In this document: in pieces, positions 2,202 through 45,492 of the stretch
Layout of the letters: every line of letters starts with the position of its first letter
How positions within the stretch are numbered: position 1 is the stretch's first letter
Origin: an uncultured Rhodoferax sp.
GTDB taxonomy: Bacteria > Pseudomonadota > Gammaproteobacteria > Burkholderiales > Burkholderiaceae_C
NCBI GenBank assembly: GCA_964654655.1
Contig: CAZZLB010000001.1
Coordinates: 1-47,052, forward strand
Length of the DNA: 47,052 nucleotides
Reading direction: 5' to 3'
The notes under the pieces: model-generated
Seen by the model: the letters and a program-made list of their open reading frames with translations, nothing else
Database searches by the model: none
Told to the model about the DNA's origin: nothing
Made by a program: the position numbers and the translations under genes

Positions 2202-2396
2202 GAAAAGTAGTGTGACAGCAAAAGAGTCTAGCGGATGCATCCGACGAGCAGCCCGCTTGCCTGGCCCGCGCGACAAGCTTTCCCTGGCTTACGGAGATTT
2301 CTCCTGCGCAAAGGCTCATTCTGCGTCAACAATTTTGCACCCAGACCGTCCCAAGCTGGCCGCAAGCCGGCTTGTCAGGCGTGGTATCTTCGCCAT

Positions 2397-4559: not shown

Positions 4560-4656
4560 TATTGTTGGACAATACCCACAAAGTTCTTCCTCCCTGCAGA
4601 ATTGGAGGGGTATGGCGTTTCATTCGTTATGATTGACTTTTACACTGGTAACCGCA

Positions 4657-5127
4657 ATGAAAACTGACAATCTAGAAGACTATTTCAGAGGACAACAAGT
4701 ATCCCTGCAATGGCTGCCCATCTTGCGCGCCCTGGCCTTTGAAATGTCGGCCAATGCAGAAACCACGGAACTAAGACAGTTGTTCTTCAAGATCGGTGAG
4801 CATTTCGCCAATGATACGGAAGATCGTTTCCAGTCTGTACAAACCCTCGCTCAACTTGAAGAGCAGCTTAATGAATTTTGGTCACAGATCAACTGGGGTT
4901 GGGTCGATTTGAAGGAAGTCAAAGCCTATATTGAAATTTCTCATCAGGCGGCACCCCTGGCAGAGGCGTTCGGTGACGATGCACTCCAATGGAGCGTGGG
5001 CTTGTTGGAGGGCTTTTACCAAAGTGTATTCAAAGTACTTGGGGCCAGTGAAACCATGGTTGTGCAAGGTATCGGAGAGTCATCCAACGGCATGGACATT
5101 CGTCTGCGTTTTGGACGACCAGACTAA
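4657..5127 (+). CDS. bcsD: Cellulose biosynthesis protein BcsD
   Basis: QWLPILRAL..E, IGEHFA, LNEFWSQINWGWV, ISHQAAPL and LLEGFY pattern. ~156 aa from ATG 4657. First gene of the bcs run. Confidence 0.88.
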   Translation: MKTDNLEDYFRGQQVSLQWLPILRALAFEMSANAETTELRQLFFKIGEHFANDTEDRFQSVQTLAQLEEQLNEFWSQINWGWVDLKEVKAYIEISHQAAPLAEAFGDDALQWSVGLLEGFYQSVFKVLGASETMVVQGIGESSNGMDIRLRFGRPD

Positions 5128-5151
5128 TTACAGGATTGAAGGAGCAAAGGC

Positions 5152-5733
5152 ATGGCCAAGACGGGAGGGAGTCCCTCGACGTTGTTCCGGTCACTTAAAC
5201 CGGACGAAGAATCTGTTCAGGTCAGCGCCAGCGCGGCCGCGCGGGAGGCAGAACAGAGATGGCCGCTGTTCAAGGCTGTATCACCCCGGAAGCAGGAGCC
5301 CACACCGGTGCTTTCACCGCAGGAGCGAGTGCTCTGGGGCAAGCAGGAACGCCCCAATGGCCAGGCGCGCAAGCCGGCTTTGTCGGTGCCCGGCGTCAGC
5401 AACAAACTGGCGGCAAGTTTGAACCGGATGGGTGGCCGCGCTGCACAGGGTGCTGTTGCCAGTGCGCCTTTGCGGGCTGAGCGGGAGAGTCCATTGCAGG
5501 ATTCAATGCGCGGCGCTACGAAATTTGCGGCGGAACCGACAGCAGGTGGTCGCGGACTGCCGTTTTCAAAGGCCCATGCATCGGAACCAGTGGAAGAAGC
5601 CGAGATGACTGGTGCGATTGACTCAGACGATTCTCTGGCGAACTTGTTCAGCCGACTTGAGGGCAAAGAGCAGTCAGTGGGCAAACCCGCCGGCAAACGG
5701 CCTTCGTTCCTGGGACGACTAGGCCGGCGATGA
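5152..5733 (+). CDS. bcsP: BcsP/BcsR-like cellulose scaffold protein
   Basis: Low-complexity protein with AREAEQRWPLF and C-terminal SLANLFSRLEG/SFLGRL. Lies between bcsD and bcsQ. RBS GAAGGAG upstream. Confidence 0.7.
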   Translation: MAKTGGSPSTLFRSLKPDEESVQVSASAAAREAEQRWPLFKAVSPRKQEPTPVLSPQERVLWGKQERPNGQARKPALSVPGVSNKLAASLNRMGGRAAQGAVASAPLRAERESPLQDSMRGATKFAAEPTAGGRGLPFSKAHASEPVEEAEMTGAIDSDDSLANLFSRLEGKEQSVGKPAGKRPSFLGRLGRR

Positions 5734-6494
5734 GTGTTGTTGGCGTTGTTTCAATGAAAGGTGGCGTCGGCAAGACGTCTGTCACCGCCAATCTTGCGAC
5801 TGCCCTGGCACAAAAACTGGGTTCCGGCCGCGTGTCTGCCATCGACCTTGACCCGCAAAATGCGCTGCACTGGCACTTTGGAATTCACGATCCAGAGACT
5901 GAAGGTGTATGCAAACAGTCTCTGAAGGGCGAAAGTTGGACTGGCATAGCGCTGGCCAGCGATTTTGATGTAACCTGTCTGCCCTATGGTGGCGCAAGTG
6001 AACCCGAACGGGAGGCTTTTGAGGCCCTGCTTTCGAGTAAGTCGCATTGGCTCGGGGATCAAATCGAGCAGGCCGGACTGAGCGAGGACCGGGTAGTGTT
6101 GATTGACACGCCACCGGGCTCCACGGTGTATCTGAGGCAGGTGTTCGCCTGTGCTGACGTGATACTGATCGTGTTGCTGGCGGACGCTGGATCCTATGCG
6201 ACGATACCGGCGATGGAATCCTGGCTCGACGAGATGTCTGCGGCTTTCCCTCGCCTTCAGAGCATTTACCTACTTAACCAGATTGATCGAAGTGATTCAT
6301 TCAACCGTGACGTGGCCGACCTGTTGCAGCGCGACCTCGGGGATCGGCTGGCGCCGCTTGGCATTCACGGTGATGAGGCGGTGAGCGAGGCACTCGCCTT
6401 TCAGCAACCGGTACTGACTTATGACCCTTATGGACAGGCCAGTCATGACATTGCCCGACTCGCGACATGGATGATCGCCACTCTGAACCGATGA
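5730..6494 (+). CDS. bcsQ: Cellulose biosynthesis ATPase BcsQ/YhjQ (MinD/ParA-like), copy 1
   Basis: KGGVGKTS deviant Walker A, IDLDPQNALHWHFG, IDTPPG, DEAVSEALA. ATGA overlaps at both ends. Confidence 0.92.
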   Translation: MSVVGVVSMKGGVGKTSVTANLATALAQKLGSGRVSAIDLDPQNALHWHFGIHDPETEGVCKQSLKGESWTGIALASDFDVTCLPYGGASEPEREAFEALLSSKSHWLGDQIEQAGLSEDRVVLIDTPPGSTVYLRQVFACADVILIVLLADAGSYATIPAMESWLDEMSAAFPRLQSIYLLNQIDRSDSFNRDVADLLQRDLGDRLAPLGIHGDEAVSEALAFQQPVLTYDPYGQASHDIARLATWMIATLNR

Positions 6495-8626
6495 GTCCCC
6501 GCGTGCTGCTAAGTCTCTGGCGGGAACGCTGGGACAAACCTGCAGCAGCAACCCGTTCGACAGCATTTCTGCAAGGCGGATTCGATCGCTGGACGCATTG
6601 GCTGACGTACGGATCGGTCTGGTCTGTGCGGGGTGTCACCATCACAGGCGCTGTGAGCTGTCTGATCCTGGCAACACTGGTTTTGGTTGTGCAGCTCGAC
6701 GTGACCGAGCAGATCATTTTCTCGGTCTTTGTGCTGTGTCTGGCCTTGTACGCTCGCCGCTATGCAGGTCATTTTGCGACGCTGTTGCTATTCGGCTTGA
6801 GTTCAGTCATGTCGGCACGTTATCTGTACTGGCGTTTGACAGCCACACTTGCCCCGGACTTCGATTTGGCATTCTTTGCAGGTTTGTGCCTTTGTCTTGC
6901 CGAACTTCACCTTTGGTTACTGACGATTACAGGCACAATGAAAGACTTGTGGCCGGTCAAGAAAGCGCACGCTGCCTTGCCTGCTGAGTCGGCGGGTTGG
7001 CCGGAGGTCGATATTTTTGTCCTCTGTAGCAACCATTCGTTGCAAACCGTGCAGTCCACGGCAACGGCAGCGCTGAGGCTCAGTTGGCCCAAGCGCATGT
7101 TGAAAATCCATCTTCTGGATGAGACCCTGCGCGATGAGGTCCGGGCATGGGCAGAGTCAATGGCTATCTCCTACCTTTGGCCGACGGAGGGATCGAGCGA
7201 CCGGGCAAGCCGAATAAACCAGGCAGTCAGCAGTTCGGCCGGCCATTTGATCGGCATTTTCGAGTGCGGTTCAAATCCAGGCACTGATTTCCTGAAGATG
7301 ACGCTTGGGTGGTTCTTGCGCGACATGAATCTGGCCATGCTGCAAACGCCAGGGCACTTTCTGGCCCCGCCACCATCATCACGCGTCATGGAGTTATTCA
7401 GCGAGCCGGAATTGGGTATCCCCTGCGCCCTGATTCGCCGATCCATGCTGAGTGAAGTCAATGGGATCCAAGCAGGACCCATATCCAAGCGAAACCACAC
7501 TGCACTCAAGTTGCAGGCGGCTGGCTACAGCACTGGCTATCTTGGCTTTAGCTCCAAGAGTGAAAAGACTGCAACGGACGTGTTTATGGCCTATCGTCCG
7601 TTTGGTGACTACTCACTTCAATGGAAGATGCAGCTTGAGTACTTCCATGACGCACTGGGGTTCTTTCGTCGCCTGCCCCGTCTCGTCTACTTTTTGGCAC
7701 CAGCAGCTTATCTGTTGCTTGATATCCGGCTCATCCACACCTCAGCGGCCCTATTGGGTGCCTACGGCTTGCCGCATCTCATTCATGGCTACATGTCCCA
7801 GGAAAGAAGAAGCAGCGAATACCGCTTCAGTGAATGGACAGAGATCCGTGAGATGCTGCTCGCCTGGTATATCCTGTGCTGGACTACAGTGACGCTGACG
7901 CGAACGGAAATCATCAAATGGAAAAGCCGGCTTGGGTCAGCATCGCCAACCGGACCACGCGCATTCAAGTGGAAAACGCTGGTGCCGTATCTTGTGATTT
8001 TTGCCCTGAATCTGACGGCCGTGACGAGCGGTGTGAACGAGTTGACGAATGCGCCTGATCTGACTGATGAGATGGCTGTCCTGTTTATTGTCTGGGCTCT
8101 TTATCACGTCATGTTTCTCACCGCCATGCTCGCGGTGTATGAAGAAAGCAGACATATTGAATTGCACACGAGATTGCAAAGGCATCTTCCCGCGATGATC
8201 AGATTGCCAAGTGGTCGCACTCTGTCCTGCACCACCGATAACTTTCCAGAGTCTGCGTTGGTCCTCAAGTTGCCAACGGCAGTACCCATGGAGAATGAGA
8301 TGTCGGTGAACATCTCTATCTTCCACAACAATCGTGAGTTCTCGTTCCCGGCGCAAGTGACGCTGACGCGTGATTTGTTCTGGCGAGCCCAAATTGAAGG
8401 GGCTGCACAAAATGTGTACAACTCGCTGGCTGTTGCGGCATACTCGCGTGGGCAGGATTGGCCAAAATGGTTGCCAGCTCGCGATGCCGACCGTCCACTA
8501 CCCAAGTGGTTGGCACCGGCTCTCGCAACGCTGCGCCGTCGGGCCTCCACGCGCTTGACCGATCTTGGGAAATTTGTGAGCAGGCAATTCAATCGTGGCC
8601 GGATGCATATAGGGAAGAAAAAATGA
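6491..8626 (+). CDS. bcsA: BcsA-like cellulose synthase homolog with degenerate catalytic and PilZ motifs (probable pseudoenzyme; intact ORF, 711 aa)
   Basis: Colinear with BcsA: RYLYWR, WPEVDIFV, FLKMTLGWFL, AMLQTP, CALIRR, PRLVYFLAP, LPHLIH, LAWYI and a PilZ-like beta domain. The DDG, HAKAG, DxD, TED, QxxRW, FxVTxK, RxxxR and DxSxxG motifs are all substituted or deleted. ATGA coupling to bcsQ and bcsB. Confidence 0.88.
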   Translation: MSPRVLLSLWRERWDKPAAATRSTAFLQGGFDRWTHWLTYGSVWSVRGVTITGAVSCLILATLVLVVQLDVTEQIIFSVFVLCLALYARRYAGHFATLLLFGLSSVMSARYLYWRLTATLAPDFDLAFFAGLCLCLAELHLWLLTITGTMKDLWPVKKAHAALPAESAGWPEVDIFVLCSNHSLQTVQSTATAALRLSWPKRMLKIHLLDETLRDEVRAWAESMAISYLWPTEGSSDRASRINQAVSSSAGHLIGIFECGSNPGTDFLKMTLGWFLRDMNLAMLQTPGHFLAPPPSSRVMELFSEPELGIPCALIRRSMLSEVNGIQAGPISKRNHTALKLQAAGYSTGYLGFSSKSEKTATDVFMAYRPFGDYSLQWKMQLEYFHDALGFFRRLPRLVYFLAPAAYLLLDIRLIHTSAALLGAYGLPHLIHGYMSQERRSSEYRFSEWTEIREMLLAWYILCWTTVTLTRTEIIKWKSRLGSASPTGPRAFKWKTLVPYLVIFALNLTAVTSGVNELTNAPDLTDEMAVLFIVWALYHVMFLTAMLAVYEESRHIELHTRLQRHLPAMIRLPSGRTLSCTTDNFPESALVLKLPTAVPMENEMSVNISIFHNNREFSFPAQVTLTRDLFWRAQIEGAAQNVYNSLAVAAYSRGQDWPKWLPARDADRPLPKWLAPALATLRRRASTRLTDLGKFVSRQFNRGRMHIGKKK

Positions 8627-10926
8627 CTGAACCAGGACGACTGTCATACCAGACTCGCTGGAACTTGCTGGCGGTAGTGCTTGTTCTTGGATTTTCCATG
8701 CTGTTTGCGGCAACGTCGGCGGAGTCAAAGTCGCGGACCAAAGCAGACAAGACAAACGCCCTTGCAGAGGCAAGTGGCGAGCCTGGTGCTCAGAAAGGCC
8801 CCCCTCGGCACCGTGTTGTTTCCTTTACTTTCAAGCAGATGGGCGCGTGGTCAGCCATCAAATTGAGGGGGGTAGACGGTTCCCAGACGCTGTCGTTCCC
8901 GATTCGTGCAGATGAGGTAGTGGTCGCTGCGAAGCTGAGAATCGCCTACGACTATTCACCTGCCCTTATTCCCGAGTTGAGTCATTTGAAGGTGTCACTG
9001 AATGAGCGCTTTGCGACCGTGCTGCCTTTGCCCAAAGACAAGGGTGTCGGAAATACACGCGATATCGATATTGATCCACGCTGGTTTTTCGATGTTAATT
9101 ACCTTCGTTTCAAGCTCATCGGACACTACACGCGAGATTGCGAGGATCCATTTCATTCTTCCTTGTGGCTGACTTTAAGTGATTTGGGGCGTCTGGAACT
9201 CACCCTGGCGCCCTTGCCCACGGTGAACGAGTTGAAGAACTTGCCAGCGCCGTTTCTGGACAAACGCGACAACATGCCTTTGAGCTTGCCGTTCGTGTTT
9301 GCGAGCAGCCCTTCTCTTGGCGCACTGAAAGCAGCTGGCGTGCTTGCGTCATGGTTCGGTTTGCAGGCCGGCAGCCGGGGAGCGCAATTTCCGGTTCTGC
9401 TGAACAATCTGCCAGAAGGCAATGCCGTGGTGTTCGTGTCGGGAGGAAAGACGCTGGAGGGGATCAAGGGCACGAGTGCCGCCACCGTGTCGATACAGGC
9501 GCACCCGAACAACCCACAGGCAAAATTGCTGGTCATCAGTGGTGGCAACGACGAAGACCTGGCGCGCGCCGCACATGCAGTGGCGTTGTTTACGTCAACG
9601 CTTGCGGGCTCGGCTGTCACGGTCACCAAAGAAATTGCGACGGCTCCGCGCAAGCCCTATGACGCCCCGGCCTGGATTCCTACGGATCGACCAGTGCGCT
9701 TCGGTGAGTTGGCACGACCTGAGGAACTGCGCACTCAAGGCTACTTCCCTGAAGTGATCCGGCTGAATTACCGCGTTGCGCCGGATCTGTTTGCGTGGCG
9801 CACACCAGGCGTCCCTTTGAAGCTGAAGTACCGCGCCATTCGCTTGCCAGGTCACAAGAGCTCCAGTCTCAATGTCGGAATCAACTCCAATTTCATTCAA
9901 GCGCTGGCCATCAACGAACCTTACCCGAAGTCGAAGGAAGTCGATTACGTCAAAGACAAAGTCGCTGTGCGTGAAGAACTCCTCTTTATTCCGCCGTATG
10001 GCGTTGCGGGACGTGATCAACTTCAGTTCAGCTATTTCTTCGACTTCGTCAAGGAGGGGCAGTGTCGCAACATGCCGCCGGACAATTTGCAAGGCGCGAT
10101 TGACCCGGAGTCGCTCCTGGATTTCAGCGGTTTTCCCCATTACACCGCCTTGCCCAATCTGGCTTATTTTTCAAGCATCGGATATCCGTTTACACGCTTG
10201 GCAGACCTGTCGGAAACTGCTGTGGTCTTGCCTGACAGTCCCAATGCGGACGAGCTTGGCCTGTACTTGACACTGATGGGAAGAATGGGTGAAGCAACGG
10301 CCTATCCAGCCTTGCGACATGCGCTTGTGGCCACTTCCGACGTGGAGAAGATGGCGTCCAGAGACCTCATGGTGATTGGCTCCGCAAGAAGCCAGGCCCT
10401 GATGGCGAAATGGGCGGACCGTCTGCCAATGGTTCAAAGCAACGGTGACCGTTACGTGCGCGAAGCCGATACAGTCTGGCGCCCGGTCTACCGCTGGGAA
10501 CAACAGGACGTTCAGTCGCCGACGCAGCCCAAGGGTGGTCTGACACTGACAGGGATCGGAATCGGAAATCTGGCAGCCCTGATGGCTTTTGAGTCACCAC
10601 TGGAGGCAGGACGCAGCGTAGTGTTCTTGTACGCAGACAAGGCTGCCGACTTGAGAAAACTGTCGGATGTTCTGACCGATCCCGAACGAATTGCATCGGT
10701 TCAAGGCGATTTTGTGATCGTGGATGACAAGAGCGTCAGCCATACAAAAGTAAGCCACACTTACTACGTAGGTTCACTGCCATGGCTTAGCAAGGTCCGC
10801 TGGTTTCTTTCTGATCAACCCTATGTACTTGGGATACTCGCCAGCATCATTTGCCTGTTGATGGCTGCAATCGTTTACCGAAAACTGGGCCCTATCAACG
10901 CCAAGCGGCGCAAGACCACCGCGTGA
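8623..10926 (+). CDS. bcsB: Cellulose synthase periplasmic subunit BcsB
   Basis: Signal peptide, DEVVVAAKL..YDYSPAL, IGHYTRDCEDPFHSSLW, LPAPFLD, KPYDAPAW, LPNLAYF..IGYPFTRLADLSET, YYVGSLPW and a C-terminal TM. Start at ATG 8623. Confidence 0.95.
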   Translation: MTEPGRLSYQTRWNLLAVVLVLGFSMLFAATSAESKSRTKADKTNALAEASGEPGAQKGPPRHRVVSFTFKQMGAWSAIKLRGVDGSQTLSFPIRADEVVVAAKLRIAYDYSPALIPELSHLKVSLNERFATVLPLPKDKGVGNTRDIDIDPRWFFDVNYLRFKLIGHYTRDCEDPFHSSLWLTLSDLGRLELTLAPLPTVNELKNLPAPFLDKRDNMPLSLPFVFASSPSLGALKAAGVLASWFGLQAGSRGAQFPVLLNNLPEGNAVVFVSGGKTLEGIKGTSAATVSIQAHPNNPQAKLLVISGGNDEDLARAAHAVALFTSTLAGSAVTVTKEIATAPRKPYDAPAWIPTDRPVRFGELARPEELRTQGYFPEVIRLNYRVAPDLFAWRTPGVPLKLKYRAIRLPGHKSSSLNVGINSNFIQALAINEPYPKSKEVDYVKDKVAVREELLFIPPYGVAGRDQLQFSYFFDFVKEGQCRNMPPDNLQGAIDPESLLDFSGFPHYTALPNLAYFSSIGYPFTRLADLSETAVVLPDSPNADELGLYLTLMGRMGEATAYPALRHALVATSDVEKMASRDLMVIGSARSQALMAKWADRLPMVQSNGDRYVREADTVWRPVYRWEQQDVQSPTQPKGGLTLTGIGIGNLAALMAFESPLEAGRSVVFLYADKAADLRKLSDVLTDPERIASVQGDFVIVDDKSVSHTKVSHTYYVGSLPWLSKVRWFLSDQPYVLGILASIICLLMAAIVYRKLGPINAKRRKTTA

Positions 10927-10933
10927 TACTGCC

Positions 10934-11353
10934 ATGCACATTTCGCAAAAGTTGGGATATCTGACATTGACGATCGCTGCACTGGCGGCGCCAGCGCTGG
11001 CCAGTGACGATCTGGAAACCAGCCAAATGGTCGACCAGGCCCGCCTTTGGCAGCAGAAGCGGCGCGACGATCTCGCCGCAGAAATCTGGCGCAAGGTGTT
11101 GCGATTTGACCCCAAACACCCCGAGGCGCTGGCCAGACTTGGTGCGATGGAGCCAGTCCCCAACAAGTTGCCACCGCCGTCCGGCGCGCCAGCGGACATG
11201 GCGCCGAAGCAAAAGCCCCTGGCACAGGCTAAACTCCCGGCATCCGCGCCATCTCGGCCCAGAGCCGCCGGGCACAGCACGAAACCAACCAGTGATTCAA
11301 ATATGAATTTTTCCAGTTCACTGGAGCTAGCTCCTGCGAAACCCAAGCCCTGA
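10934..11353 (+). CDS. Small secreted TPR protein resembling only the N-terminus of BcsC, with a Pro/Ala-rich tail
   Basis: Signal peptide ending ALA, then MVDQARLWQQKRRDDLAAEIWRKVLRFDPKHPEAL, like the first TPR of BcsC. No barrel domain. Sits in the bcsZ/bcsC position. Confidence 0.7.
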   Translation: MHISQKLGYLTLTIAALAAPALASDDLETSQMVDQARLWQQKRRDDLAAEIWRKVLRFDPKHPEALARLGAMEPVPNKLPPPSGAPADMAPKQKPLAQAKLPASAPSRPRAAGHSTKPTSDSNMNFSSSLELAPAKPKP

Positions 11354-11371
11354 AGTCGTCGAAAACGATCT

Positions 11372-12121
11372 ATGCAAGTCATCGCTTTCATCTCGGGCAA
11401 AGGCGGAGTTGGCAAGACCACCCTGGCAGTCAACGTCGCCGTGGCTCTGGCGTTGCGCCACAAACGCGTGCTACTGATAGACCTTGATCCGCAGAATGCG
11501 CAGCGCCTCCACCTGGGCATGAATCCCGAAGAAATTGCCGGATTGACGCGGGAAGGTATTTCACATAGTTCGATTTTTGACAGCCCTTTTGGAATTCAGT
11601 TCATCCCTTTCGGCAGAATTACCGATACCGAACTGGAAGAATTTGAGGCCGAACTCAAGAAGTATCCAGGCTGGGTGTCTGATGGCATTGATTCGCTTAA
11701 TCCGGGTTCGTTTGACTTCGTCATACTTGACACACCGCCGGGTCCAACTGCCTACTTGCAGCAGGCGCTGGCAGCAGCGAATCGCGCGTTGGTCGTTGTA
11801 CTGGCCGACGCGGCCTCCTACGCGACCATTCCCAAGATGACATCACTGGTCGAGCAATACACCGCTGAGCGAACAGATTTTTTTGGGTTCAGCCTGCTGA
11901 TCAACCAAATGCCAGTGCATAACAAGTTGAGTCATCAGGTGCGCTCGTCACTGTACGCCAGCTATGCCAATCAGGTTGTTCCGGTGGCCGTGCACAAAGA
12001 TCCGCGTGTCTCACAGGCCCTGGGCTTTGAACGACCCGTGCTCCAGTATGAGCCTGGATGCCAGGCGAGTCTGGACATTCAGAGCGTGGCAGACTGGCTG
12101 CTCGACAGCATTGAACAATGA
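11372..12121 (+). CDS. bcsQ: BcsQ/YhjQ-family ATPase, copy 2 (WssJ-like position next to acetylation genes)
   Basis: SGKGGVGKTT, IDLDPQNAQRLHLG, LDTPPG, DAASYATIP. Confidence 0.88.
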   Translation: MQVIAFISGKGGVGKTTLAVNVAVALALRHKRVLLIDLDPQNAQRLHLGMNPEEIAGLTREGISHSSIFDSPFGIQFIPFGRITDTELEEFEAELKKYPGWVSDGIDSLNPGSFDFVILDTPPGPTAYLQQALAAANRALVVVLADAASYATIPKMTSLVEQYTAERTDFFGFSLLINQMPVHNKLSHQVRSSLYASYANQVVPVAVHKDPRVSQALGFERPVLQYEPGCQASLDIQSVADWLLDSIEQ

Positions 12122-12139: not shown

Positions 12140-13525
12140 ATGGTTTTTAGCTCAAACATCTTCCTCTTTGCATTTCTCCCGCTCTTTCTTGCCTGTTACT
12201 ACCTGACCCCCTTGCGCGCCCGATCGGCGCTGATTCTGATCTTCAGTTGGGCTTTTTATGCTTGGTGGCGCCCTGATTTTCTGGCATTGCTGGTCGGCGT
12301 CACCAGCGTCAGCTACGCTTTTGCGCTGGCCATTGGTTCGAGCAGCGAGCAAGCAAGCCGGCATCGCCTGCTGACCGCCGGTGTCACGCTCAATCTGCTC
12401 GCCCTGGGTTATTTCAAGTATGCCAACTTTGGGGTCGACAGTCTGAACGCGGCTTTGACTGCGCTGGGTTTCAATGCCATTGAATTCACGCGTGTGTTGT
12501 TGCCCATCGGCTTGTCCTTTTATATATTTCACGCCATCAGTTATCTGGTGGACATTTACCGCCGTGAGGCACCGCCGGCACGAAATTTCGTCGACTTCGC
12601 AGCCTTTATTGCACTCTTCCCGCATTTGGTGGCAGGGCCGGTACTGCGTTATCACCTGCTGGCCGAGCAATTCAGAAGCCGCAAGCACTCGCTGAGTAAC
12701 TTTTCCAGTGGCTGCGTTGTATTCATGGTGGGTTTTTGCAAAAAGGTCCTGATTGCCGACAGCGTTGCACCATTGGTGGAAGCAGCGTTCTCAGCGCCTG
12801 TACCCACGCTGGCCGATGCATGGCTTGGCGCCAGCGCCTACACGATTCAGCTGTTTTTCGACTTCAGCGGCTACACCGACATGGCTATTGGCCTGGCACT
12901 GATGATCGGATTTGTCTTCCCCGAGAATTTCAACGATCCTTACCTGTCGCGCTCCATAACGGAGTTCTGGAAGCGCTGGCACATGTCACTGTCAAACTGG
13001 TTGCGTGAATACCTCTATGTCTCGCTTGGTGGCAACCGCAAAGGCTTGGTACGCACCTACATCAATTTGTTCCTGACCATGCTGCTGGGCGGTCTGTGGC
13101 ACGGCGCAAACTGGACTTTTGTGCTCTGGGGCGCCTGGCACGGCGGTATTTTGATATTGGAGCGCTACTGGGAGCAGCGCCTGGGCAAACCCATGCTGCC
13201 TGGCTGGCTGCGCGTTATCAAGACCATGCTGCTGGTCATCTTTGGCTGGGTCCTTTTCAGGGCGTCCAATGTGGTTGGCGCTGTGCGCATGTTTGAGGGG
13301 ATGCTTGGACTGCATGGCACAGGATTCAGTCCGCCCGTGCAGTGGCAGGTGACTCCGGATCGGTTGATGGTCCTCGCGCTTGGTGTGCTGCTGGTCTACG
13401 CCATGCCCTGGCTCAAACGCCAGGGTGGCATGTACCTGCGTTACCTCCTGCTGCCTTTGTTCTTGTGGGCGGTAGCGACGCTGTCGGCGCAGTCTTTTAC
13501 GCCTTTTCTGTATTTTCAGTTCTGA
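12140..13525 (+). CDS. algI: MBOAT O-acetyltransferase, AlgI/WssH family
   Basis: MVFSSNIFLFAFLP, LPIGLSFY, FPHLVAGP, FDFSGYTDMAIG, FWKRWHMSLS, GGLWHGANW and C-terminal PFLYFQF. Confidence 0.95.
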   Translation: MVFSSNIFLFAFLPLFLACYYLTPLRARSALILIFSWAFYAWWRPDFLALLVGVTSVSYAFALAIGSSSEQASRHRLLTAGVTLNLLALGYFKYANFGVDSLNAALTALGFNAIEFTRVLLPIGLSFYIFHAISYLVDIYRREAPPARNFVDFAAFIALFPHLVAGPVLRYHLLAEQFRSRKHSLSNFSSGCVVFMVGFCKKVLIADSVAPLVEAAFSAPVPTLADAWLGASAYTIQLFFDFSGYTDMAIGLALMIGFVFPENFNDPYLSRSITEFWKRWHMSLSNWLREYLYVSLGGNRKGLVRTYINLFLTMLLGGLWHGANWTFVLWGAWHGGILILERYWEQRLGKPMLPGWLRVIKTMLLVIFGWVLFRASNVVGAVRMFEGMLGLHGTGFSPPVQWQVTPDRLMVLALGVLLVYAMPWLKRQGGMYLRYLLLPLFLWAVATLSAQSFTPFLYFQF

Positions 13526-13532
13526 GTTCCCG

Positions 13533-14672
13533 ATGCCCAACAACGCCCCAACCGTCGATCATCCGGCAACGCGGTCCCGCTACAGCGTCCTGGCGGCACT
13601 GACACTCTCGAGCGTGATGCTGGCGGGCACCTGGCAAATCATTGCGGCCGCCATCTTGCCGGCCGGACTGGATTTTCCGCGTAGTTGGCTGGACTTCCGT
13701 GAAGGCCGCAGTACTGGCGCGCTTGAAAAACAGCTTGACCAGCGGCTACCCGCGCGCAGCGCCCTTGTTGACGCGGCCAACAGCCTGCGGTACCTGCTTA
13801 CCGGCAGCGGCGGGGAACAGGTCCGCCCGGGCAAGGACGGGTGGCTGTTCCTGACGGAAGAGTTCCGCTATGACGCTGACGGCCGTGCCAATCTGAAAGT
13901 TCGTGCGGAACTGCTTGGCGCTGCCGCCCGCAGTCTGCAACGCCAGGGGGTCAAGCTGATCGTGGCCGTGGTGCCTGACAAAGCGCGGGTATATTCAAAC
14001 AAATTGTCCAGCACGCGTTACCCGGAATACAACCGTTCGCGTTATGCCGATGCCGTGAATGCCTTTGAACAGCAAGGCGTCACCACGGTCAACCTGTTGC
14101 AGCCTCTGGTCCGCGCGGCAGCTCAGGGCGAAGTCTATTACCGCACCGACACCCACTGGAACCAGAACGGTGCCGAAGTGGCGGCACAAGCGGTTGCAGC
14201 GGCCATCAAACAGCTGGGCTTGGTGCTCGAAGAGACCAGTTTTAGCAGCCGCAAAGGCAGCCCCGTGGAACGCCCGGGTGATCTGATCCGGCTGATGGGC
14301 CTCGGCGAGAACTTCAGGATGCTCGGCCTGCTGCCGGACACAGAAGCGCCCGTCGTGACCGAACAAAGCAGTGCCCAGAGCGCGGGGCTGTTTGGTGACA
14401 GCGCAGTGCCAGTCGTCGTAACGGGCACTTCCTATTCCTTGCGTGCCAACTTTGTCGGCTATCTGCAACAGGCCGTCTCGAGCAAGGTACTCAACGCAGC
14501 GAAGGATGGGGGTGGCTTTCTGCAAGCAACAACGTCCTATCTGAAGGACGATGCGTTTCGCTCCAGCAAACCAAAGGTATTGGTGTGGGAAGTACCTGAG
14601 CGATTTCTCTGGCAAGCGCTCGATGATGAAAAGAAGTGGTTTGACACGCTCAACTGGAAGGCCGATCAATGA
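13533..14672 (+). CDS. algJ: AlgJ/WssI-type periplasmic O-acetyltransferase (SGNH-like)
   Basis: N-terminal TM, GKDGWLFL, VVPDKARVY, YYRTDTHWN (D-x-H), GTSYS (catalytic Ser), VLVWEVPER. Confidence 0.88.
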   Translation: MPNNAPTVDHPATRSRYSVLAALTLSSVMLAGTWQIIAAAILPAGLDFPRSWLDFREGRSTGALEKQLDQRLPARSALVDAANSLRYLLTGSGGEQVRPGKDGWLFLTEEFRYDADGRANLKVRAELLGAAARSLQRQGVKLIVAVVPDKARVYSNKLSSTRYPEYNRSRYADAVNAFEQQGVTTVNLLQPLVRAAAQGEVYYRTDTHWNQNGAEVAAQAVAAAIKQLGLVLEETSFSSRKGSPVERPGDLIRLMGLGENFRMLGLLPDTEAPVVTEQSSAQSAGLFGDSAVPVVVTGTSYSLRANFVGYLQQAVSSKVLNAAKDGGGFLQATTSYLKDDAFRSSKPKVLVWEVPERFLWQALDDEKKWFDTLNWKADQ

Positions 14673-18088: not shown

Positions 18089-18100
18089 TTTTCTAGCCCC

Positions 18101-19066: not shown

Positions 19067-19123
19067 TGATGCCGCAAAGTTCCAGCCACCCACCCCAGCA
19101 TTGACGTCGAGCTGACACACACC

Positions 19124-23094: not shown

Positions 23095-23106
23095 GCGCCT
23101 GCTCCA

Positions 23107-23802: not shown

Positions 23803-23869
23803 TGCAAGCCACTCTTGTTCCTGCCAGATCGGGTGCGATCCAGACGCATGATTCCGTCGAAGGCATCGC

Positions 23870-29733: not shown

Positions 29734-29798
29734 AGATCAGTACATATGCAATAGCCGATGCGGTAACACTTGCATGGCAAATGTGACGAGGGAGTGAT

Positions 29799-32215: not shown

Positions 32216-33622
32216 TCAGTCTTGAGGATAGCTGCAGACTTTGATATCTGCGACAGCAAATGCGTTGGTGGTGCCAGGATAGAGTCTGATCCTGGTGACA
32301 CCCTTGCCATTCAAACCCAGAGGGATCTTGAATGGGTGGTCCAGTTCATCGCCGGCTACATCCACGCTGAACTTGCGCACCGCACCACCGACCTCCAAGG
32401 CTTCAATTGCCACTTGCCTGGAACCATTGACCGTCATGCGCGCTGAAAGATAAGCGTGGTCGTCAGTCGGCTTGTCGAAATGGATATCAGCAAAATCGGC
32501 TTCCTGTGTGGGGCCGACGGGCTTCACCCCCTGGCTCTTGGGCAGGCCTGCCGCGTCAAACTTCGCGCTGATCGGCGATGGCTGACAGGTGCTCTGCACC
32601 AGAGCCCCTACCTGAAGCAACCATTCGCTGTCATCGATGCGGTAACGTTCGGCACGAAACGGGTAGCTCGGCCTGAAGCCTACGACCCGCTCCGGCATCT
32701 CCCAAATGATGAGCTTGGGTCGATGAGCCTGAAAAGCATCATCACGCAAGTAAGCACGCATCACTGCCCACGGTCCGGCGTCCCCTTCGACGGAAAAGTT
32801 GATCAGGTCACGCTGCAACGTGTAACGCAATGCGTCAGAAAAACCGGACCAGTTGCCTGAAAAGCTGCTGCCAGCCAACGCCAGGTCCGTCCCCGGTGAT
32901 CCATTTCCAAACAAGCCAGGCTGAATCTCGCTTTCCTTGCTCACCTTGAATCGCAGGATTTCTTCAGCGGCATACATGGGCGTACCTGGAGGCAGGAGAA
33001 GCGTGATGTCACGCGGCTTGACTTGCCTCTGCGCTTTGCTGGCCCAGGCGAGCTTGTATTTTTGCACCGGCACAGCGTCAAGCGCCTTCTTCAGGATCGG
33101 ACTTGCCGCGATGCCGGCCTGTATTGCCTGTGCAGCCGCCATCGCCCCGCTGGGCGTCCAGTGCGTGTCCAGGCGAAAAAACAAGGGGGAGCTGGTGTTT
33201 TCAAGAGCCGCCTTGCGCAACGGCGCTTTGAGATCGATGACTTGAACGTTCTCTGCGCGCAGCGCGCCCAGTACTGCGTCATTGAATCCTTTCATGTAGG
33301 CACTCAACTTGAAGTCATCAGGCAACTGTTCAACATAGGTCTCCATTTTGGAGGGCACCAAAACCACCGCAAGGGTGATCGCTTGGCGTGCCAACATACG
33401 ATTGAACTGTGAAATCAAGCTGAGTGTTTTCTGGACATCCTTGTCCAACACTTCGAGAACAATTTCGTGCCGAACAAAAAGCCAGTCGTTCTTGCCAACA
33501 ATCGAGTAATTCTCGGCAGCAAACGCGAAACCTGGATGAAAAACGCCAAGAAGTGCGGAAACAAGCACGCCATTAATCAGGCGAGACTTAGGAATCCGCC
33601 ATAGTAGTGGACGCAGAGTCAT
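32216..33622 (-). CDS. AlgX-like O-acetyltransferase with C-terminal beta (CBM-like) domain, copy 2
   Basis: GKNDWLF, LVPSK, FFRLDTHW, GSSFS, LIIWEMPER, plus an extra C-terminal domain flanked by Cys. Confidence 0.85.
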   Translation of the reverse strand: MTLRPLLWRIPKSRLINGVLVSALLGVFHPGFAFAAENYSIVGKNDWLFVRHEIVLEVLDKDVQKTLSLISQFNRMLARQAITLAVVLVPSKMETYVEQLPDDFKLSAYMKGFNDAVLGALRAENVQVIDLKAPLRKAALENTSSPLFFRLDTHWTPSGAMAAAQAIQAGIAASPILKKALDAVPVQKYKLAWASKAQRQVKPRDITLLLPPGTPMYAAEEILRFKVSKESEIQPGLFGNGSPGTDLALAGSSFSGNWSGFSDALRYTLQRDLINFSVEGDAGPWAVMRAYLRDDAFQAHRPKLIIWEMPERVVGFRPSYPFRAERYRIDDSEWLLQVGALVQSTCQPSPISAKFDAAGLPKSQGVKPVGPTQEADFADIHFDKPTDDHAYLSARMTVNGSRQVAIEALEVGGAVRKFSVDVAGDELDHPFKIPLGLNGKGVTRIRLYPGTTNAFAVADIKVCSYPQD

Positions 33623-33634
33623 AGGAACACTTTT

Positions 33635-35035
33635 CTATCTGAGAATATCGTCCGGCAGGCGGCACAGTTGCACACCTTGCACCGTAAAGCCACTGCTCTT
33701 TCCTGGGTAAAAACGCACTTTGCTGTAACCATTACCGCTTGACGGCAAGGGTGTCTTGAGAACATGCGCCGCATCGTCGCCAGGCACATTGAGGTTGAAG
33801 CGTCGCGTCGTCGCACCAGTCCCAGAGGCTTCCAGAACCACACTCTTGGAGCCGACCGTGGTTACACGGGCCGCCAGATAATCCAGCTTTTCTATCGGTT
33901 TATCGAAGCTGATTTCGATGAAATCGTTTTCGCTCGTGGCCCCGGTCGAAAAGTCGGCGCCTTTAAGGTTGGCAGCGTTGGCTGCCATCCCGGTCGCACT
34001 GAATCTGGTTGTCACGCCGGACGGCTTGCAGCTACTCTGAACCAGTGCCGAAACACGAAGCAACCATTCTGTGTTGTTACTGATGTAGCGAGCATCACGA
34101 TACTTGTAATCCGGTGGTGCACGCATATCGCGCTCCGGCATCTCCCAGATCATCAGTTTGGGCGGTTGCGTCTGGAATGCATCGTCACGCAGATAGGTCT
34201 CCAAGCCAACCCAGGACCCCTGGTCAGCCCCCACAGAAACGCTCAGCAGGTCCCGTTGCAGTGTGTAACGCAGAGCTTCCGGAAACCCGGTCCAGGCGCT
34301 GGAGTAGCTGCTTCCCATCAAGGTGATCGCGAGCGCAGGCCGATTGCCAAGCAGATCTTCCTTGGAAGCCTGAGCTTTGCTGACCTTGAAGGGTGTCACC
34401 TGCTCAAACGCCAGGATGGGCGAGTTGGGCGGCAACTGCTCAGTCAGGTCTCTGGCTTTCGAGTTCTGCCGTCGTGCATTTACCAATTCATACTTTTCTT
34501 CGGGTATCGTCCCGAGCAGGGCTTTCAGGCCTGGAGTCGCATCGATGCTGGCTTTTACCGCCTCCGCAGCCACCAGGGCACCGGCGGGCGCCCAGTGGGT
34601 GTCGAGTCGATAGAAAAGGGGGCTCGGGCTGTTCCGCTTGGGACTGTTCAGGAACGCGGAATTGAGATCAACAATGTCGACTCGCCCGGCCTGCAATGCC
34701 TTGCCAATGCGCTCGTAGTTGCCCTTCAGGTAATCGTTTACCTTGATGTCGTCCGGCAGATATTCCGAATAAATCCGCATCTTCAGAGGGACCATTGCGA
34801 CGGTCATGCTGATTCCATTGGCCGACAGGACTTTGTTAAAGCGCTGAATCAGGTCAACCGACACATCAACCATTGCCGAATCCGCAGCGCTGGAAATTTC
34901 ATGGCGGTAAAAAAGCCAGTCGCTCTTGCCAATCACCCCCGGCGGGGATTCGGCCGCATGGACCGATGTCAAGCCAATACCGTTGACCCAAATCAGCGCA
35001 AGGAGTACCTTGATCGCAGCACTTGTATTCATCAT
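33635..35035 (-). CDS. AlgX-like O-acetyltransferase with C-terminal beta (CBM-like) domain, copy 1
   Basis: Signal peptide, GKSDWLF, MVPLK, FYRLDTHW, GSSYS, LMIWEMPER. Tandem paralog of 32216-33622. Confidence 0.85.
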   Translation of the reverse strand: MMNTSAAIKVLLALIWVNGIGLTSVHAAESPPGVIGKSDWLFYRHEISSAADSAMVDVSVDLIQRFNKVLSANGISMTVAMVPLKMRIYSEYLPDDIKVNDYLKGNYERIGKALQAGRVDIVDLNSAFLNSPKRNSPSPLFYRLDTHWAPAGALVAAEAVKASIDATPGLKALLGTIPEEKYELVNARRQNSKARDLTEQLPPNSPILAFEQVTPFKVSKAQASKEDLLGNRPALAITLMGSSYSSAWTGFPEALRYTLQRDLLSVSVGADQGSWVGLETYLRDDAFQTQPPKLMIWEMPERDMRAPPDYKYRDARYISNNTEWLLRVSALVQSSCKPSGVTTRFSATGMAANAANLKGADFSTGATSENDFIEISFDKPIEKLDYLAARVTTVGSKSVVLEASGTGATTRRFNLNVPGDDAAHVLKTPLPSSGNGYSKVRFYPGKSSGFTVQGVQLCRLPDDILR

Positions 35036-35068
35036 TCATTTTCTCCCCTGGAAAGCAAAGACTGTCGG

Positions 35069-35776
35069 CTATTTTCCTGTATAGCGCTCGATTTTATTTT
35101 GGATGGCGCGCACCGCGAGTCTGTTATTCGGGCCTGGCAGCAACAACACACTATACGTTCCGCCCTGCGCCATGCTCAGCACCGCCCTGGACTGCGACAC
35201 CTTGTCGCCAATTCTGACCGCCATCAGTTCGACCTCGATCGGGTTGACCGAAATGGCCTTGGACGCAGCATAGGTGATACCCGAAAACACGGTGGTCTTG
35301 CCATCGGCTGTCAGGACATCGAGCGTTCCGGCAGTGTCATCGAGGTGATAGACCGACAGCAGAGCCTTGAGTTTGTTGGAGTTGGCCTTGTCCTCGAAAA
35401 CGATGGGGACTGCACTGGCGTTCAGGGCAGTGAATGCAACCGTCATGGCGCGCCCGCGTACCACGTCCAGAGCGAGAGCAGCCTGTGCAGTTGATTTGCC
35501 TGGCGAGTGCAGCGCAATATTGTGCTGGCCGGCCGTCAGCACCATGTAATCGCTGGCCTGCCCAGCACCCAGGTTTTTCACTCGCGACTTCCCGTCCACC
35601 AGAACGTCGACGGCGCCCAAGCGACCAGCCAGCAGCACGCGAACATAAGCAGAGTCAGTCGGAGGTTCGGGGTCGTAGAGCAATCCCGTTGGTTGGGCCT
35701 GCGACCGTCCGCTCAGCAAGAACAGCATTGTCGCCAGCCCCAGAACAACATGTTTGACGAGCAATCGTGATTGCAT
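35069..35776 (-). CDS. algF: AlgF/WssG-type acetylation accessory protein
   Basis: Signal peptide, then LYDPEPPTDSAYVRV, ASDYM and KALLSVYHL..TADGKT, an AlgF-like two-domain pattern. Confidence 0.85.
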   Translation of the reverse strand: MQSRLLVKHVVLGLATMLFLLSGRSQAQPTGLLYDPEPPTDSAYVRVLLAGRLGAVDVLVDGKSRVKNLGAGQASDYMVLTAGQHNIALHSPGKSTAQAALALDVVRGRAMTVAFTALNASAVPIVFEDKANSNKLKALLSVYHLDDTAGTLDVLTADGKTTVFSGITYAASKAISVNPIEVELMAVRIGDKVSQSRAVLSMAQGGTYSVLLLPGPNNRLAVRAIQNKIERYTGK

Positions 35777-35826: not shown

Positions 35827-37674
35827 TCACCGACTGGCGCTTGCTGCAGGGCGGTCGAAGTACACGGCCCATTGGTATTCCCCTGGGGCAAGACCCTCAA
35901 GCACGACGGCACTGCGCCAGCGATCCACGCTGGCCACTTTGGGTACTTTGGCAGTACCGCCCGTTGACACCAGGCGCATCGAGCTGCCCGACTCCGGTAG
36001 GTTGACCCACACCGCTGCGGCTTGTCCAAGCGGTGTTGTTCCTTTGACAGCAAGCTTGAGCTGGAGCCCCGAAACAGCTGACTCCAGGCGCACGCTGACA
36101 CGCTCTCGCGTGCGCCACCACTCTGCCACCTGAGTGGCCGTGGCCAGCCACATGTGGTTACGACGCCCCTTGAGGTAATCGAAGATCTCAGTCAACTGCT
36201 CTTTGGTGAGCAAACTCTGACCGGGGATCGTAACGATCGACATTGCGCCCATCCTGTCAATCAACTCGATTTCGGCCAAAAAGGTCTTCATGCCCTCTTC
36301 AGGCTCTGTGTCCATCAGATCTTCAGGGGCGCTTTGCGTGCGCGGCAACACCACCAGCGGCTTTGCAACGCTCCCATCAACTTGCGACAGGTAGGGCAAA
36401 CGTGCCTCGGTCGCCCCCATGAATGTCAGGTGGTGACCGAGGCTGCGTTCCTGCAGCAGCTTCTCGGTGGTCCGGTCATAAGAATCCATCGGAGAGCGAA
36501 AGCCAGCGTTGCCGGGAAGGCTGAATCCCGCGTCCTTCATTTCACTGACCATGGTGCTCAAACGCTTGCCTTGTACCGCCGAAGACTGGTCCTTGAAACC
36601 ATCAAAGCGATCACCGTGGTAGGCAACTTCATGCCCCCGGGCCTGCACCTGCTGAAGTATTTTTGCCGATTTCGCAGCATTTTCACTCAGCATGTAATAG
36701 GTGGCCCGACCGCCTGTCTCTTCCATCATCCTGGCGAAAATGAGATCAGCATCCATCATGATGTCGATCGCTGCCACGGCGACCACCAAAGCGCTGCCAT
36801 AGGGGTGTGGCCAGTTCGGCACAAAGGCATCCGGCTGGCGCAACAGCCACATCAGGGCGTTGTGTGCGATCGCCTCCAATGCCTTGGGATCTGCAGAGCG
36901 CCATATGCGTTCGGGATAGCCCAGGACAACCGACCGCGAAAGTCGGCCTGACGGCTGACTGCGCTCGTCGAAAACAATCGTGCTGCTGACCTTCCCCGCA
37001 GTGACGGTACGTGACCAATCCATCAGATCTGCAGCCGCCTGCCGGCCAATCAGGCGCAGTGGATACCAGTCCTTCGGATGTTCCATCCAGACGCGCAGAC
37101 CCGCGGGCAAGTCATGCAGCACCGGAGTATCGCCGTGCACTATCAGGAAAGTGTCATCCTTGGCAGCCTCATTGCTTCCAACAACCTTGGCATCCAGTGC
37201 GCTCTCCATGAAGCCATAGCCGCGCCACTCACCGGACTCGCTTCGCACGCCGGCCATCCAGGTCGCCAGAACGCCGCCGCCCTTGCCACGAAACTCGCGC
37301 ACAGCACGCATTTCACGTTCGGTCAGCGCCACAGTGGAAGGAAGCAAGAGTACACCCGGCTGCGATACCTCGAGTTGCTCAACCGCAGACACCAGTTGAA
37401 ATGGGATTCTGTATTTGCGCAGAAACACCTCCCAGGTGCGCACCGATTCGTTGGCATCGATTCCGCTGGCCGCCTGTCGAGCCCGCGTCGTAGGCGACGC
37501 GTAGAGCAATACTCTTTGGACCATTGGAATGGGGGGCGCCAGGGACCCAGTCGCAGCGGTGGACAGCGCGTCGGCCGCAAGGCAGCCGACTGGGTGGCAC
37601 CAGACCGCGGCGAAAGTCAGAAAATAGACTATCGCCCAACCCGGCAGTTTCAGCGTCTTATGCCAGCACTGCAT
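35827..37674 (-). CDS. Polysaccharide deacetylase (CE4/NodB)-like protein with N-terminal GATase-like domain, paralog A
   Basis: VLLLPSTVAL..FRGKGGGVLATW N-domain, then RATYY, GHEVAYHGD, GFRSP, VVLPRTQ, WLAT..QVAEWW. Start at ATG 37674 with a GGGGAGAG RBS. Confidence 0.8.
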   Translation of the reverse strand: MQCWHKTLKLPGWAIVYFLTFAAVWCHPVGCLAADALSTAATGSLAPPIPMVQRVLLYASPTTRARQAASGIDANESVRTWEVFLRKYRIPFQLVSAVEQLEVSQPGVLLLPSTVALTEREMRAVREFRGKGGGVLATWMAGVRSESGEWRGYGFMESALDAKVVGSNEAAKDDTFLIVHGDTPVLHDLPAGLRVWMEHPKDWYPLRLIGRQAAADLMDWSRTVTAGKVSSTIVFDERSQPSGRLSRSVVLGYPERIWRSADPKALEAIAHNALMWLLRQPDAFVPNWPHPYGSALVVAVAAIDIMMDADLIFARMMEETGGRATYYMLSENAAKSAKILQQVQARGHEVAYHGDRFDGFKDQSSAVQGKRLSTMVSEMKDAGFSLPGNAGFRSPMDSYDRTTEKLLQERSLGHHLTFMGATEARLPYLSQVDGSVAKPLVVLPRTQSAPEDLMDTEPEEGMKTFLAEIELIDRMGAMSIVTIPGQSLLTKEQLTEIFDYLKGRRNHMWLATATQVAEWWRTRERVSVRLESAVSGLQLKLAVKGTTPLGQAAAVWVNLPESGSSMRLVSTGGTAKVPKVASVDRWRSAVVLEGLAPGEYQWAVYFDRPAASASR

Positions 37675-37715
37675 GCTCTCTCCCCTTGTCAGGTCAAATC
37701 GATTATGATGAAAAA

Positions 37716-39671: not shown

Positions 39672-39717
39672 TGATGTGCCGCTCACGCAGTGTCTATGCG
39701 CAGTTATCTATGCAACA

Positions 39718-42540: not shown

Positions 42541-42774
42541 ATGGATCTTATTGGCATCCTGGCGTCCGTCATCCTGATCACCACCATTGGCACGATGGTG
42601 GTTGGGGTAGTCGCCTATGCTGCGTTCAAACTGCGCGACAAGCGCAAGCCTGGCAACAGCCGGGCCGACGACACGATGAATGTCGGCGGCCCCCTCAAGC
42701 CCGTTTTCCTGGAACGCTATGTTCCTGGCGTCACGACCGAAACTGCAGATCAACCCGCACTTGATGACCGATGA
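42541..42774 (+). CDS. Small single-TM membrane protein
   Basis: 77 aa, hydrophobic N-terminus followed by KLRDKRKP. Fills the gap exactly (1-nt gap upstream, ATGA overlap downstream). Confidence 0.75.
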   Translation: MDLIGILASVILITTIGTMVVGVVAYAAFKLRDKRKPGNSRADDTMNVGGPLKPVFLERYVPGVTTETADQPALDDR

Positions 42775-45443: not shown

Positions 45444-45492
45444 GGCGACCGACCTATCACATCATTAAATGTACTGGCAACATCACGCCGGC

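Follow-up and report, generated by a model that had tools for sequence, protein, structure and literature searches.

The window examined here is a stretch of 47,052 nucleotides from an uncultured Rhodoferax sp. (contig CAZZLB010000001.1 of assembly GCA_964654655.1), and its left part carries a bcs (cellulose synthesis) operon whose synthase gene, bcsA*, lies at 6491..8626 on the plus strand. An earlier note on this DNA had described the gene as an intact but catalytically dead bcsA. A single uninterrupted frame of 711 amino acids (aa) spans 6491-8626 without stop or frameshift and is coupled by ATGA overlaps to bcsQ upstream (6491-6494) and to bcsB downstream (8623-8626), all of which can be read directly. 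The product comprises transmembrane (TM) helices TM1-4, a degenerate GT-A domain, TM5-8, a degenerate PilZ domain and a C-tail; it is homologous to E. coli BcsA over its full length (phmmer E 7e-94) and keeps the TM-GT2-TM-PilZ architecture (GT2, glycosyltransferase family 2). No Pfam family matched the protein at E 0.01, and it scored below the curated cut-offs of both NCBIfam CelA (TIGR03030; 331 vs 699 bits) and PRK11498 (392 vs 992). An assembly artefact or frameshift was ruled out by the single open frame and by dozens of independent orthologs.

We compared the motifs of BcsA* with those of E. coli BcsA and of the intact paralog encoded in the same genome, P0122. With one qualification, the losses that the earlier note had read by eye were borne out by this alignment. 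PTYNE is changed to LCSNH, HAKAGN to SDRASR, FDCD to FECG (7259) and QTPH to QTPG, while S-K-R replaces TED at 7484..7492 (+), so that Arg334 occupies the position of the catalytic Asp and the catalytic base is lost. QRIRW, the QxxRW motif, aligns to a gap, the gating loop FNVTSK reads WKSRLG, and PilZ RRHWR and DFSEGG have become ELHTR and NFPESA. The segment leading to FFCG is indeed shortened, with 46 aa between QTPH and TED in BcsA* against 67, and the junction of this 21-aa deletion lies at 7400..7423 (+); the helix after QTPH and FFCG is removed with it and is absent in 94-100% of dead members. The qualification concerns LDDG, which has changed to LDET (7118) as claimed but still has its first Asp, a residue kept in 70 of the 79 dead-family members described below. 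Passages of PMC8892547 define BcsA synthases by D,D,D,Q(Q/R)xRW and describe the roles of the TED base, QxxRW, FxVTxK and RxxxR; of the D,D,D,Q(Q/R)xRW set and the TED base, just the first Asp remains here. Overall, 3/26 motif residues are retained, against an identity of 35% to the intact paralog (binomial p 0.007).

Two AlphaFold models of BcsA* (predicted local distance difference test, pLDDT, 82 and 88; predicted template-modelling score, pTM, 0.72 and 0.80) match BcsA domain by domain, but superpose poorly on it as wholes, with a global template-modelling score of 0.36-0.37 that stands without a control fold of the intact paralog. Opened domain packing would agree with the loss of interface helices, although no conclusion is drawn from this. 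The best structural match was BcsA (Z 22.8; root-mean-square deviation 12.6-16.4 Å over 418-516 residues), and the GT-A fold is predicted to be intact, at about 3 Å to single-domain GT2s.

The same signature recurs in many related genomes. A protein search gave 141 matches, 120 of them listed, and motifs were examined in the best 47 90%-clusters (P0001-P0047). The signature was found in 44 of these, the others being the query itself (P0002), an intact synthase (P0043) and a fragment (P0045); the 44 lack TED, QxxRW, FxVTxK and DxSxxG, and their QTPH-to-TED stretch measures 44-48 aa instead of 67. A scan of species genomes yielded 38 loci in Rhodoferax, other Comamonadaceae, Polaromonas, Hylemonella, Hydrogenophaga, Azonexus and Noviherbaspirillum, and all readable loci share the signature and the order bcsD-P-Q-A*-B-(C stub)-Q2 as far as their contigs extend. 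One assembly holds two divergent dead copies (L045 and L046, 46% and 54% identical to the query), which may reflect a duplication or a mixed bin, and locus L109 carries type II and bcsD-type cellulose operons in tandem, with an intact bcsA in both. The best 150 matches of a profile search contributed about 48 more 50%-clusters, and an Atlas search with the homolog P0003 returned ordinary cellulose-synthase clusters only. At least five dead proteins among the matches listed bear the label 'cellulose synthase (UDP-forming)', and because of such labels cellulose production is over-called in freshwater Burkholderiales.

From 154 aligned rows we removed 10 (3 motif-poor ones outside the clade and 7 distant synthases), and a filter at 80% identity left 79 dead and 42 intact sequences. 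TED, QxxRW, FxVTxK, FFCG and DxSxxG occur in 0/79 dead members as opposed to 38-42 of the 42 intact ones. PilZ RxxxR is retained in 13/79 dead members, DxD in 14/79 and the TED Asp in 4/79, and no substitute residue is fixed at the DxD and TED columns. A tree was built by a quick method from 49 of these 154 rows and contains long branches; its 24 dead rows form one clade (Shimodaira-Hasegawa-like approximate likelihood ratio test, SH-aLRT, 100; stem 0.76), which is joined with 6 intact close relatives, this genome's paralog among them (SH-aLRT 100). We therefore conclude that the motifs were lost a single time, in a bcsA belonging to this lineage itself. Mean identity among dead members is 31%.

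Nei-Gojobori ratios of non-synonymous to synonymous substitution (dN/dS) were calculated for 13 hand-picked pairs of related loci. For bcsA* they lie at 0.17-0.33 in 13/13 pairs, including pairs at dS 0.1-0.2, and each domain stays below 1; the corresponding values are 0.05-0.11 for bcsB, 0.06-0.21 for bcsQ, 0.05-0.08 for intact bcsA and 0.01-0.07 for the GT2 introduced below. The orthologs thus share both the motif loss and a dN/dS below 1, as the earlier note had proposed to check. Recent decay, which predicts intact orthologs and a neutrally evolving copy, failed on both counts, and it is excluded by the dN/dS values of about 0.2 together with the single old clade in the tree. Slower decay, in which bcsA* is a duplicate kept open only through its translational coupling to bcsB, would fit the relaxed dN/dS relative to intact bcsA, the long end branches, the accumulation of deletions in sub-lineages (one member has 532 aa) and the loss of A* in genome G151. 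We nonetheless regard it as highly improbable, as dN/dS remains near 0.2 even at dS >1, new residues (N584, P586, P658, W10-K16) have been fixed despite the low mean identity, the dead-copy matches of one genome search were reported with terminal stops only and no internal ones, and coupling to bcsB requires no 700-aa membrane protein. The bcsA* family is a real, conserved pseudo-synthase family.

The pattern of conservation is uneven along the protein. Among columns conserved to at least 90% in intact BcsA, the dead family keeps 11/21 in the N-terminus and TM1-4, 8/127 in the GT domain, 9/57 in the interface-helix (IF)/TM5-8 region, 1/9 in PilZ and 3/5 in the tail. Residues newly fixed in the dead family are W10-R11-R13-W14-K16, N584-P586 and P658-L661-P662. 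The first group belongs to a W-R-x-R-W-x-K motif (6518..6538, +) that is conserved to at least 80% in the dead family and common to the intact sister paralog; N-F-P, in place of PilZ D-x-S (8240..8248, +), is a fixed family signature (N 99%, P 100%), and an R-G-x-D-W-P-x-W-L-P motif in the C-tail (8447..8476, +) is conserved within the dead family. H289, R316 and R317 are nearly invariant and, together with the predicted GT-A fold and the widely retained first Asp, might be taken to indicate a new catalytic or ligand-sensing activity; the rarity of DxD and of the TED Asp and the lack of any fixed replacement argue against this idea, which we consider extremely unlikely. A structural role, as suggested in the earlier note, fits this pattern, in that the family keeps the TM1-4 region predicted to bind BcsB. 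According to passages of PMC11470070 and PMC8892547, the BcsB anchor sits in the TM1-3 groove of BcsA, and the former text also describes BcsQ as buttressing PilZ and models the BcsP N-terminal domain into a GT-PilZ pocket. In the dead loci the BcsB anchor, the BcsP N-terminus and the BcsQ Walker A motif are all intact, and their BcsBs group separately from those of intact operons.

The operon around bcsA* reads bcsD-P-Q-A*-B, a 139-aa BcsC stub, bcsQ2, wssH and wssI. bcsD (4657..5127, +; PF03500) is followed by bcsP (5152..5733, +), which matches NF040718 weakly, below the model cut-off, and is called by its position and by an N-terminal domain conserved across loci. bcsQ (5730..6494, +; TIGR03371 above cut-off) has an intact Walker A motif, and bcsB (8623..10926, +; PF03170) is full length with a C-terminal membrane anchor. 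Downstream lie the stub, an N-terminal tetratricopeptide repeat (TPR) piece of BcsC without porin (10934..11353, +; 33% identical to an intact BcsC N-terminus), a second bcsQ in a WssJ-like position (11372..12121, +; profile match), a WssH/AlgI-like MBOAT acetyltransferase gene (12140..13525, +; PF03062) and a WssI/AlgJ-like SGNH acetyltransferase gene (13533..14672, +; PF16822). The operon looked complete to the earlier note, and does so at first sight, but bcsZ is missing, here and in every dead locus examined, and bcsC is reduced to the stub. By the standard of bcsPDQ type I/hybrid operons, bcsD, bcsP and bcsQ stand beside bcsAB as expected, while bcsZ and a full bcsC do not. The BcsC remnants of dead loci are graded, with porin-less N-terminal TPR stubs of about 900, 300, 200 or 139 aa or none at all (range 139-899 aa; further examples at L139:8456-11155 and L141:9730-12420). 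No RNA entry was listed for 4600-11400, and a scan for promoters and terminators gave a result at chance level. The DNA at the left edge (window 3-2984) has a higher GC content (0.61-0.66 vs about 0.56) and contains a gene for a Sig-70_X6-type extracytoplasmic function (ECF) sigma factor and a Ser/Thr kinase gene that is cut off by this edge.

As the earlier note had suggested checking, the rest of the genome was searched for a motif-intact bcsA, and one was found just past the right edge. The window ends in a third bcsQ and the 3' part of a bcsC (44655..47052, -) that belong to an intact bcsQABZC operon continuing on contig C16, which holds bcsQ-A-B-Z-C with every motif present. The first 69 bases of C16 overlap the last 69 of the window at 98.6%, and this overlap places the intact bcsA about 6-8 kb beyond the edge. 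bcsD and bcsP occur once each in this genome (77% complete), beside the dead gene, and the intact operon lacks both. The DNA separating the two operons carries an eps/exosortase cluster, then algX-algX-algF and one deacetylase-fold gene, and finally a module of four genes, namely bcsE, a TPR/barrel gene, a GT2 gene and another deacetylase-fold gene. The first of these (14669-32206) is a complete XrtB/PEP-CTERM-type cluster (epsA, B, L, D, E, F, G, xrtB, epsI, wzx, glycosyltransferase genes, wzy, GH5), inserted between the two halves of the system only in the closest relatives. Two AlgX-like SGNH genes and an AlgF/WssG-like gene follow (32216..35776, -; Pfam), so that acetylation genes of the WssF/G/H/I type are present in the window. 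Deacetylase-fold protein 1 (35827..37734, -) has metal motifs that are degenerate across 17 homologs and is probably a second pseudo-enzyme of the same system.

In the module, an open reading frame (ORF) for a BcsE-like receptor of cyclic di-GMP (c-di-GMP) with an intact RxxD (37524..39671, +; PF10995; true start probably later) overlaps a TPR protein gene (39580..41181, +), for whose product an outer-membrane barrel is predicted from the sequence pattern, with a weak PgaA match. In three distant genomes (L100:10778-13375, L101:10859-14116, L102:11211-14207) these two are fused in one frame of 865-1085 aa, in which a cytoplasmic domain is combined with a signal-like segment and with what is predicted to be an outer-membrane barrel. 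Next comes the gene for a PgaC/HAS-like GT2 of 455 aa (41172..42539, +; HAS, hyaluronan synthase). It lacks PilZ and has DDG, DxD, ED and QRYRW intact, as is expected of a processive GT2; D137 D138, D190 D192, E281 D282 and Q318-R321 W322 are invariant across 58 GT2 sequences. It is likely the active polymerase. Among solved structures, its sequence best matched an archaeal mannosyltransferase and, of the polymerases, chondroitin and hyaluronan synthases. An invariant Q-x-x-E-Y may point to a polymer of N-acetylglucosamine (GlcNAc). No PgaD partner was noticed beside the GT2 among ORFs of at least 90 aa, though no family search was aimed at PgaD. The membrane-anchored deacetylase-fold protein 2 (42771..44666, +; profile match) closes the module; it reads Y-L-G-D-T-Q where nearly all close orthologs, the nearest included, have Y-H-G/A-D-x-H, and since both metal-binding His residues are gone, the protein of this genome may be inactive.

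The earlier note had named two candidate partners, the GT2 at 41172 and an intact bcsA beyond the right edge, and their distribution separates them. Our tally covers 47 distinct genomes with a dead copy, this one and 46 searched, most of them incomplete assemblies. The GT2 is present in 44/47 (70-89% identity), whereas intact bcsA is present in 13/47, two of an unrelated E. coli-like type; intact status was read from motifs in this genome and four others and taken for the remainder from 76-89% identity to the paralog. A BcsC porin was found in 13/47, one of them weak. Five dead-copy genomes that are at least 98% complete, two of them closed, have no CelA above cut-off and the GT2 in all, and two of the five carry a lone GH8 gene elsewhere. 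A role of BcsA* as partner or regulator of an intact cellulose synthase from another locus is thus very unlikely: 34/47 dead-copy genomes, including two closed ones, are without intact bcsA and 34/46 without BcsC porin. One cultured carrier lacking intact bcsA is Noviherbaspirillum galbum 17J57-3 (L062), in which a 620-aa GT2 was seen. In favour of such a partnership are the intact bcsA of this genome and 12 others and the fact that bcsD and bcsP sit here only with the dead copy; at most it would be a second role where both copies exist. The intact bcsQABZC operon past the right edge exists, as the note had supposed, but is not the obligate partner.

As these counts start from the dead copy, genomes of the genus and family were additionally drawn blind. 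The genus draw (n=126) gave 24 genomes with dead copy and GT2, 1 with the dead copy only, 4 with the GT2 only and 97 with neither. In the family draw (n=300) the dead copy occurred in 3 genomes, all with the GT2, and among 28 other bcsA carriers 0 had the dead signature and 2 had the GT2. Because kin are not independent, no p-value is given weight for these draws. An order-level draw of 400 genomes spread over families, with 4 candidates scored in each, revealed no close GT2, and of its 52 bcsA-like matches 8 were checked, all intact. Stronger points than these counts are that the two parts form a co-oriented single gene string in Azonexus (L049) and Noviherbaspirillum malthae (L141), which are distant hosts, and that both are retained when unlinked, 1.35 Mb apart in the closed genome G100 and 65 kb apart in the closed genome G020. 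Distances of BcsA* and GT2 are also correlated (Mantel rho 0.62, 14 genomes). A prediction of the complex between BcsA* 1-555 and GT2 12-455 scored 0.00, gave no verdict and was not used as evidence.

Collectively, we interpret BcsA* as a BcsA without its catalytic, gating and c-di-GMP motifs and as a member of one old family under purifying selection. It is probably the hub in the membrane on which BcsB and BcsP/D/Q assemble into a scaffold for a second, PgaC-like synthase rather than for cellulose synthesis; we put the probability of this scaffold reading at roughly 0.58. What is established directly is that the motifs were lost, that the family has a single origin and is under selection, how the genes are ordered, and that bcsA* co-occurs with the module and with the acetylation genes. 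By analogy to solved Bcs structures, the BcsB anchor would still be held by TM1-3, and BcsP and BcsQ would still find a docking site on the back face of GT-PilZ and in turn bring in BcsD and BcsE. Gene content suggests that the 455-aa GT2 makes the polymer, possibly a GlcNAc-based one, that BcsE may supply the c-di-GMP input lost by the dead PilZ, that the TPR/barrel protein could replace the lost BcsC porin, and that WssH/I, AlgF and AlgX might acetylate the GT2 product. In two genomes, G030 and G170, the GT2 is accompanied by an intact bcsD-P-Q-A-B-Z-C, an arrangement that resembles a pre-duplication state. On this view, a locus with the two synthases, intact in G170, would have duplicated its bcs operon; one copy may have retained D, P, Q and B together with the acetylation genes while losing catalysis, bcsZ and the porin, and the other may have kept QABZC and now be missing from most lineages.

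Several observations weigh against this scaffold reading. Constraint on bcsA* is relaxed, its dN/dS exceeding the values of intact bcsA by a factor of three to four. Both the co-occurrence and the Mantel correlation are inflated by kinship and linkage (21/44 within 40 kb), several dead-copy genomes carry distant GT2 synthases (26-39% to P0122), and the best NCBIfam match of the GT2, PgaC_IcaA (TIGR03937), reaches 218 bits of a 422-bit cut-off. Dead copies stand without GT2 or bcsE in G132 (86% complete) and in the incomplete G081; in G075, also incomplete, the dead copy lacks the GT2 and the module's last gene lies at the contig end. Conversely, distant modules (44-55%) occur without bcs genes nearby, those of G683, G728 and G834 (50-55%) stand alone without a bcsA or bcsD match, G002 (89% complete) has the module without any match to bcsA, B or D, and G151 keeps bcsD-P-Q-Q and the module with A*-B lost and a type II bcs operon adjoining. 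These modules without BcsA* lead us to view the GT2 module as a self-standing synthase unit and BcsA* as more likely an organiser than an obligate activator. They also tell against BcsA* as an obligate co-synthase of the GT2, either a PgaD-like activator or a membrane channel for its product, as does the poorly kept IF/TM5-8 channel region. Such a role would agree with the retained TM region and with the apparent lack of a PgaD-sized neighbour, PgaC requiring a PgaD-like partner in the passages of PMC8892547, and we consider it distinctly unlikely.

Somewhat better placed, but still unlikely, is a job for the BcsA*-BcsB/BcsDPQ scaffold that is independent of the GT2, such as acetylating another polymer (for instance a Wzy-type eps product) or positioning the BcsD cytoskeleton, with the GT2 only travelling along. 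The WssH ortholog is nearly as constant as the GT2 (38/46 searched genomes) and usually adjacent to the dead copy, in G132 the genes A*, B, D, P, Q, wssH and wssI are present and the GT2 is absent, and part of the co-occurrence is explained by linkage. By contrast, an EpsF ortholog occurs in just 15/46 genomes, on which ground we rejected a link to the adjacent eps/exosortase cluster, and the GT2 is retained when unlinked; in closed G020 the WssH homolog is far away and just 45% identical, yet the GT2 is kept at 73%. Under the scaffold reading, the PgaC-like machine that BcsA* would serve occurs in almost the same set of freshwater bacteria as the dead copy, and a scaffold role is likely. A broader proposal, which we make tentatively and rate at slightly worse than even, is that a new synthase-dependent exopolysaccharide system of Burkholderiales took over the cellulose machinery: a PilZ-less GT2 would make a non-cellulose polymer, dead BcsA, BcsB and the BcsDPQ cytoskeleton would position it, BcsE would provide c-di-GMP input, and acetylation would be of the alginate type. 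If so, nature has separated the scaffold role of BcsA from catalysis, with scaffold function outliving catalysis, the residues kept by the dead family map surfaces probably needed by partners, and the locus points to a system additional to the five surveyed in PMC7112194.

A search of the published literature, supplements lying outside it, found no description of a dead BcsA family. The extra BcsAs of E. coli are predicted to be functional in the excerpted text of bioRxiv 10.1101/2025.05.09.653004. The pseudomonad 'Orphan' synthases, described in part of PMC10237404 as carrying a periplasmic GH17 domain fused to GT2, were rejected as a counterpart: BcsA* has no GH17 match, and its whole length aligns to BcsA. 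The closest comparison is with BcsA of E. coli (PDB 9fmv, 9fp0, 9b8v) and R. sphaeroides (4p00), which BcsA* resembles in full-length homology, domain order and bcsQ-A-B order; it differs in having lost all catalytic, gating and c-di-GMP motifs, in the 21-aa deletion before FFCG and in an operon without bcsZ and BcsC porin. With beta-proteobacterial bcsPDQ (type I/hybrid) operons the dead locus shares the bcsD-bcsP-bcsQ-bcsA-bcsB order, the BcsP N-terminal domain and the BcsQ Walker A motif. However, their scaffold, as described in sections of PMC11470070, supports an active BcsA, whereas the synthase here appears inactive by its motifs and most carriers have no intact copy. Wss acetylated cellulose systems (P. 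fluorescens SBW25, Bordetella avium), in passages of PMC8892547 and PMC7112194, likewise combine two BcsQ and AlgI, AlgJ, AlgF and AlgX-like genes with bcsAB; in the present locus the counterpart of the active WssB is dead, those of WssD and WssE are truncated or missing, and the locus has another synthase module joined to it. The GT2 module in turn resembles the poly-N-acetylglucosamine (PNAG) system PgaABCD/IcaA in its TPR/barrel gene, deacetylase-fold gene and PilZ-less GT2, and departs from it in scoring about half the cut-off, in showing no PgaD, and in having BcsE and acetylation genes. Dead enzyme folds retained as structural or regulatory subunits are also represented by pseudo-glycosyltransferases such as GtfB and by the degenerate modules of PelD and BcsE; what is dead in these two is a signalling domain, whereas here it is the polymerase-translocase itself.

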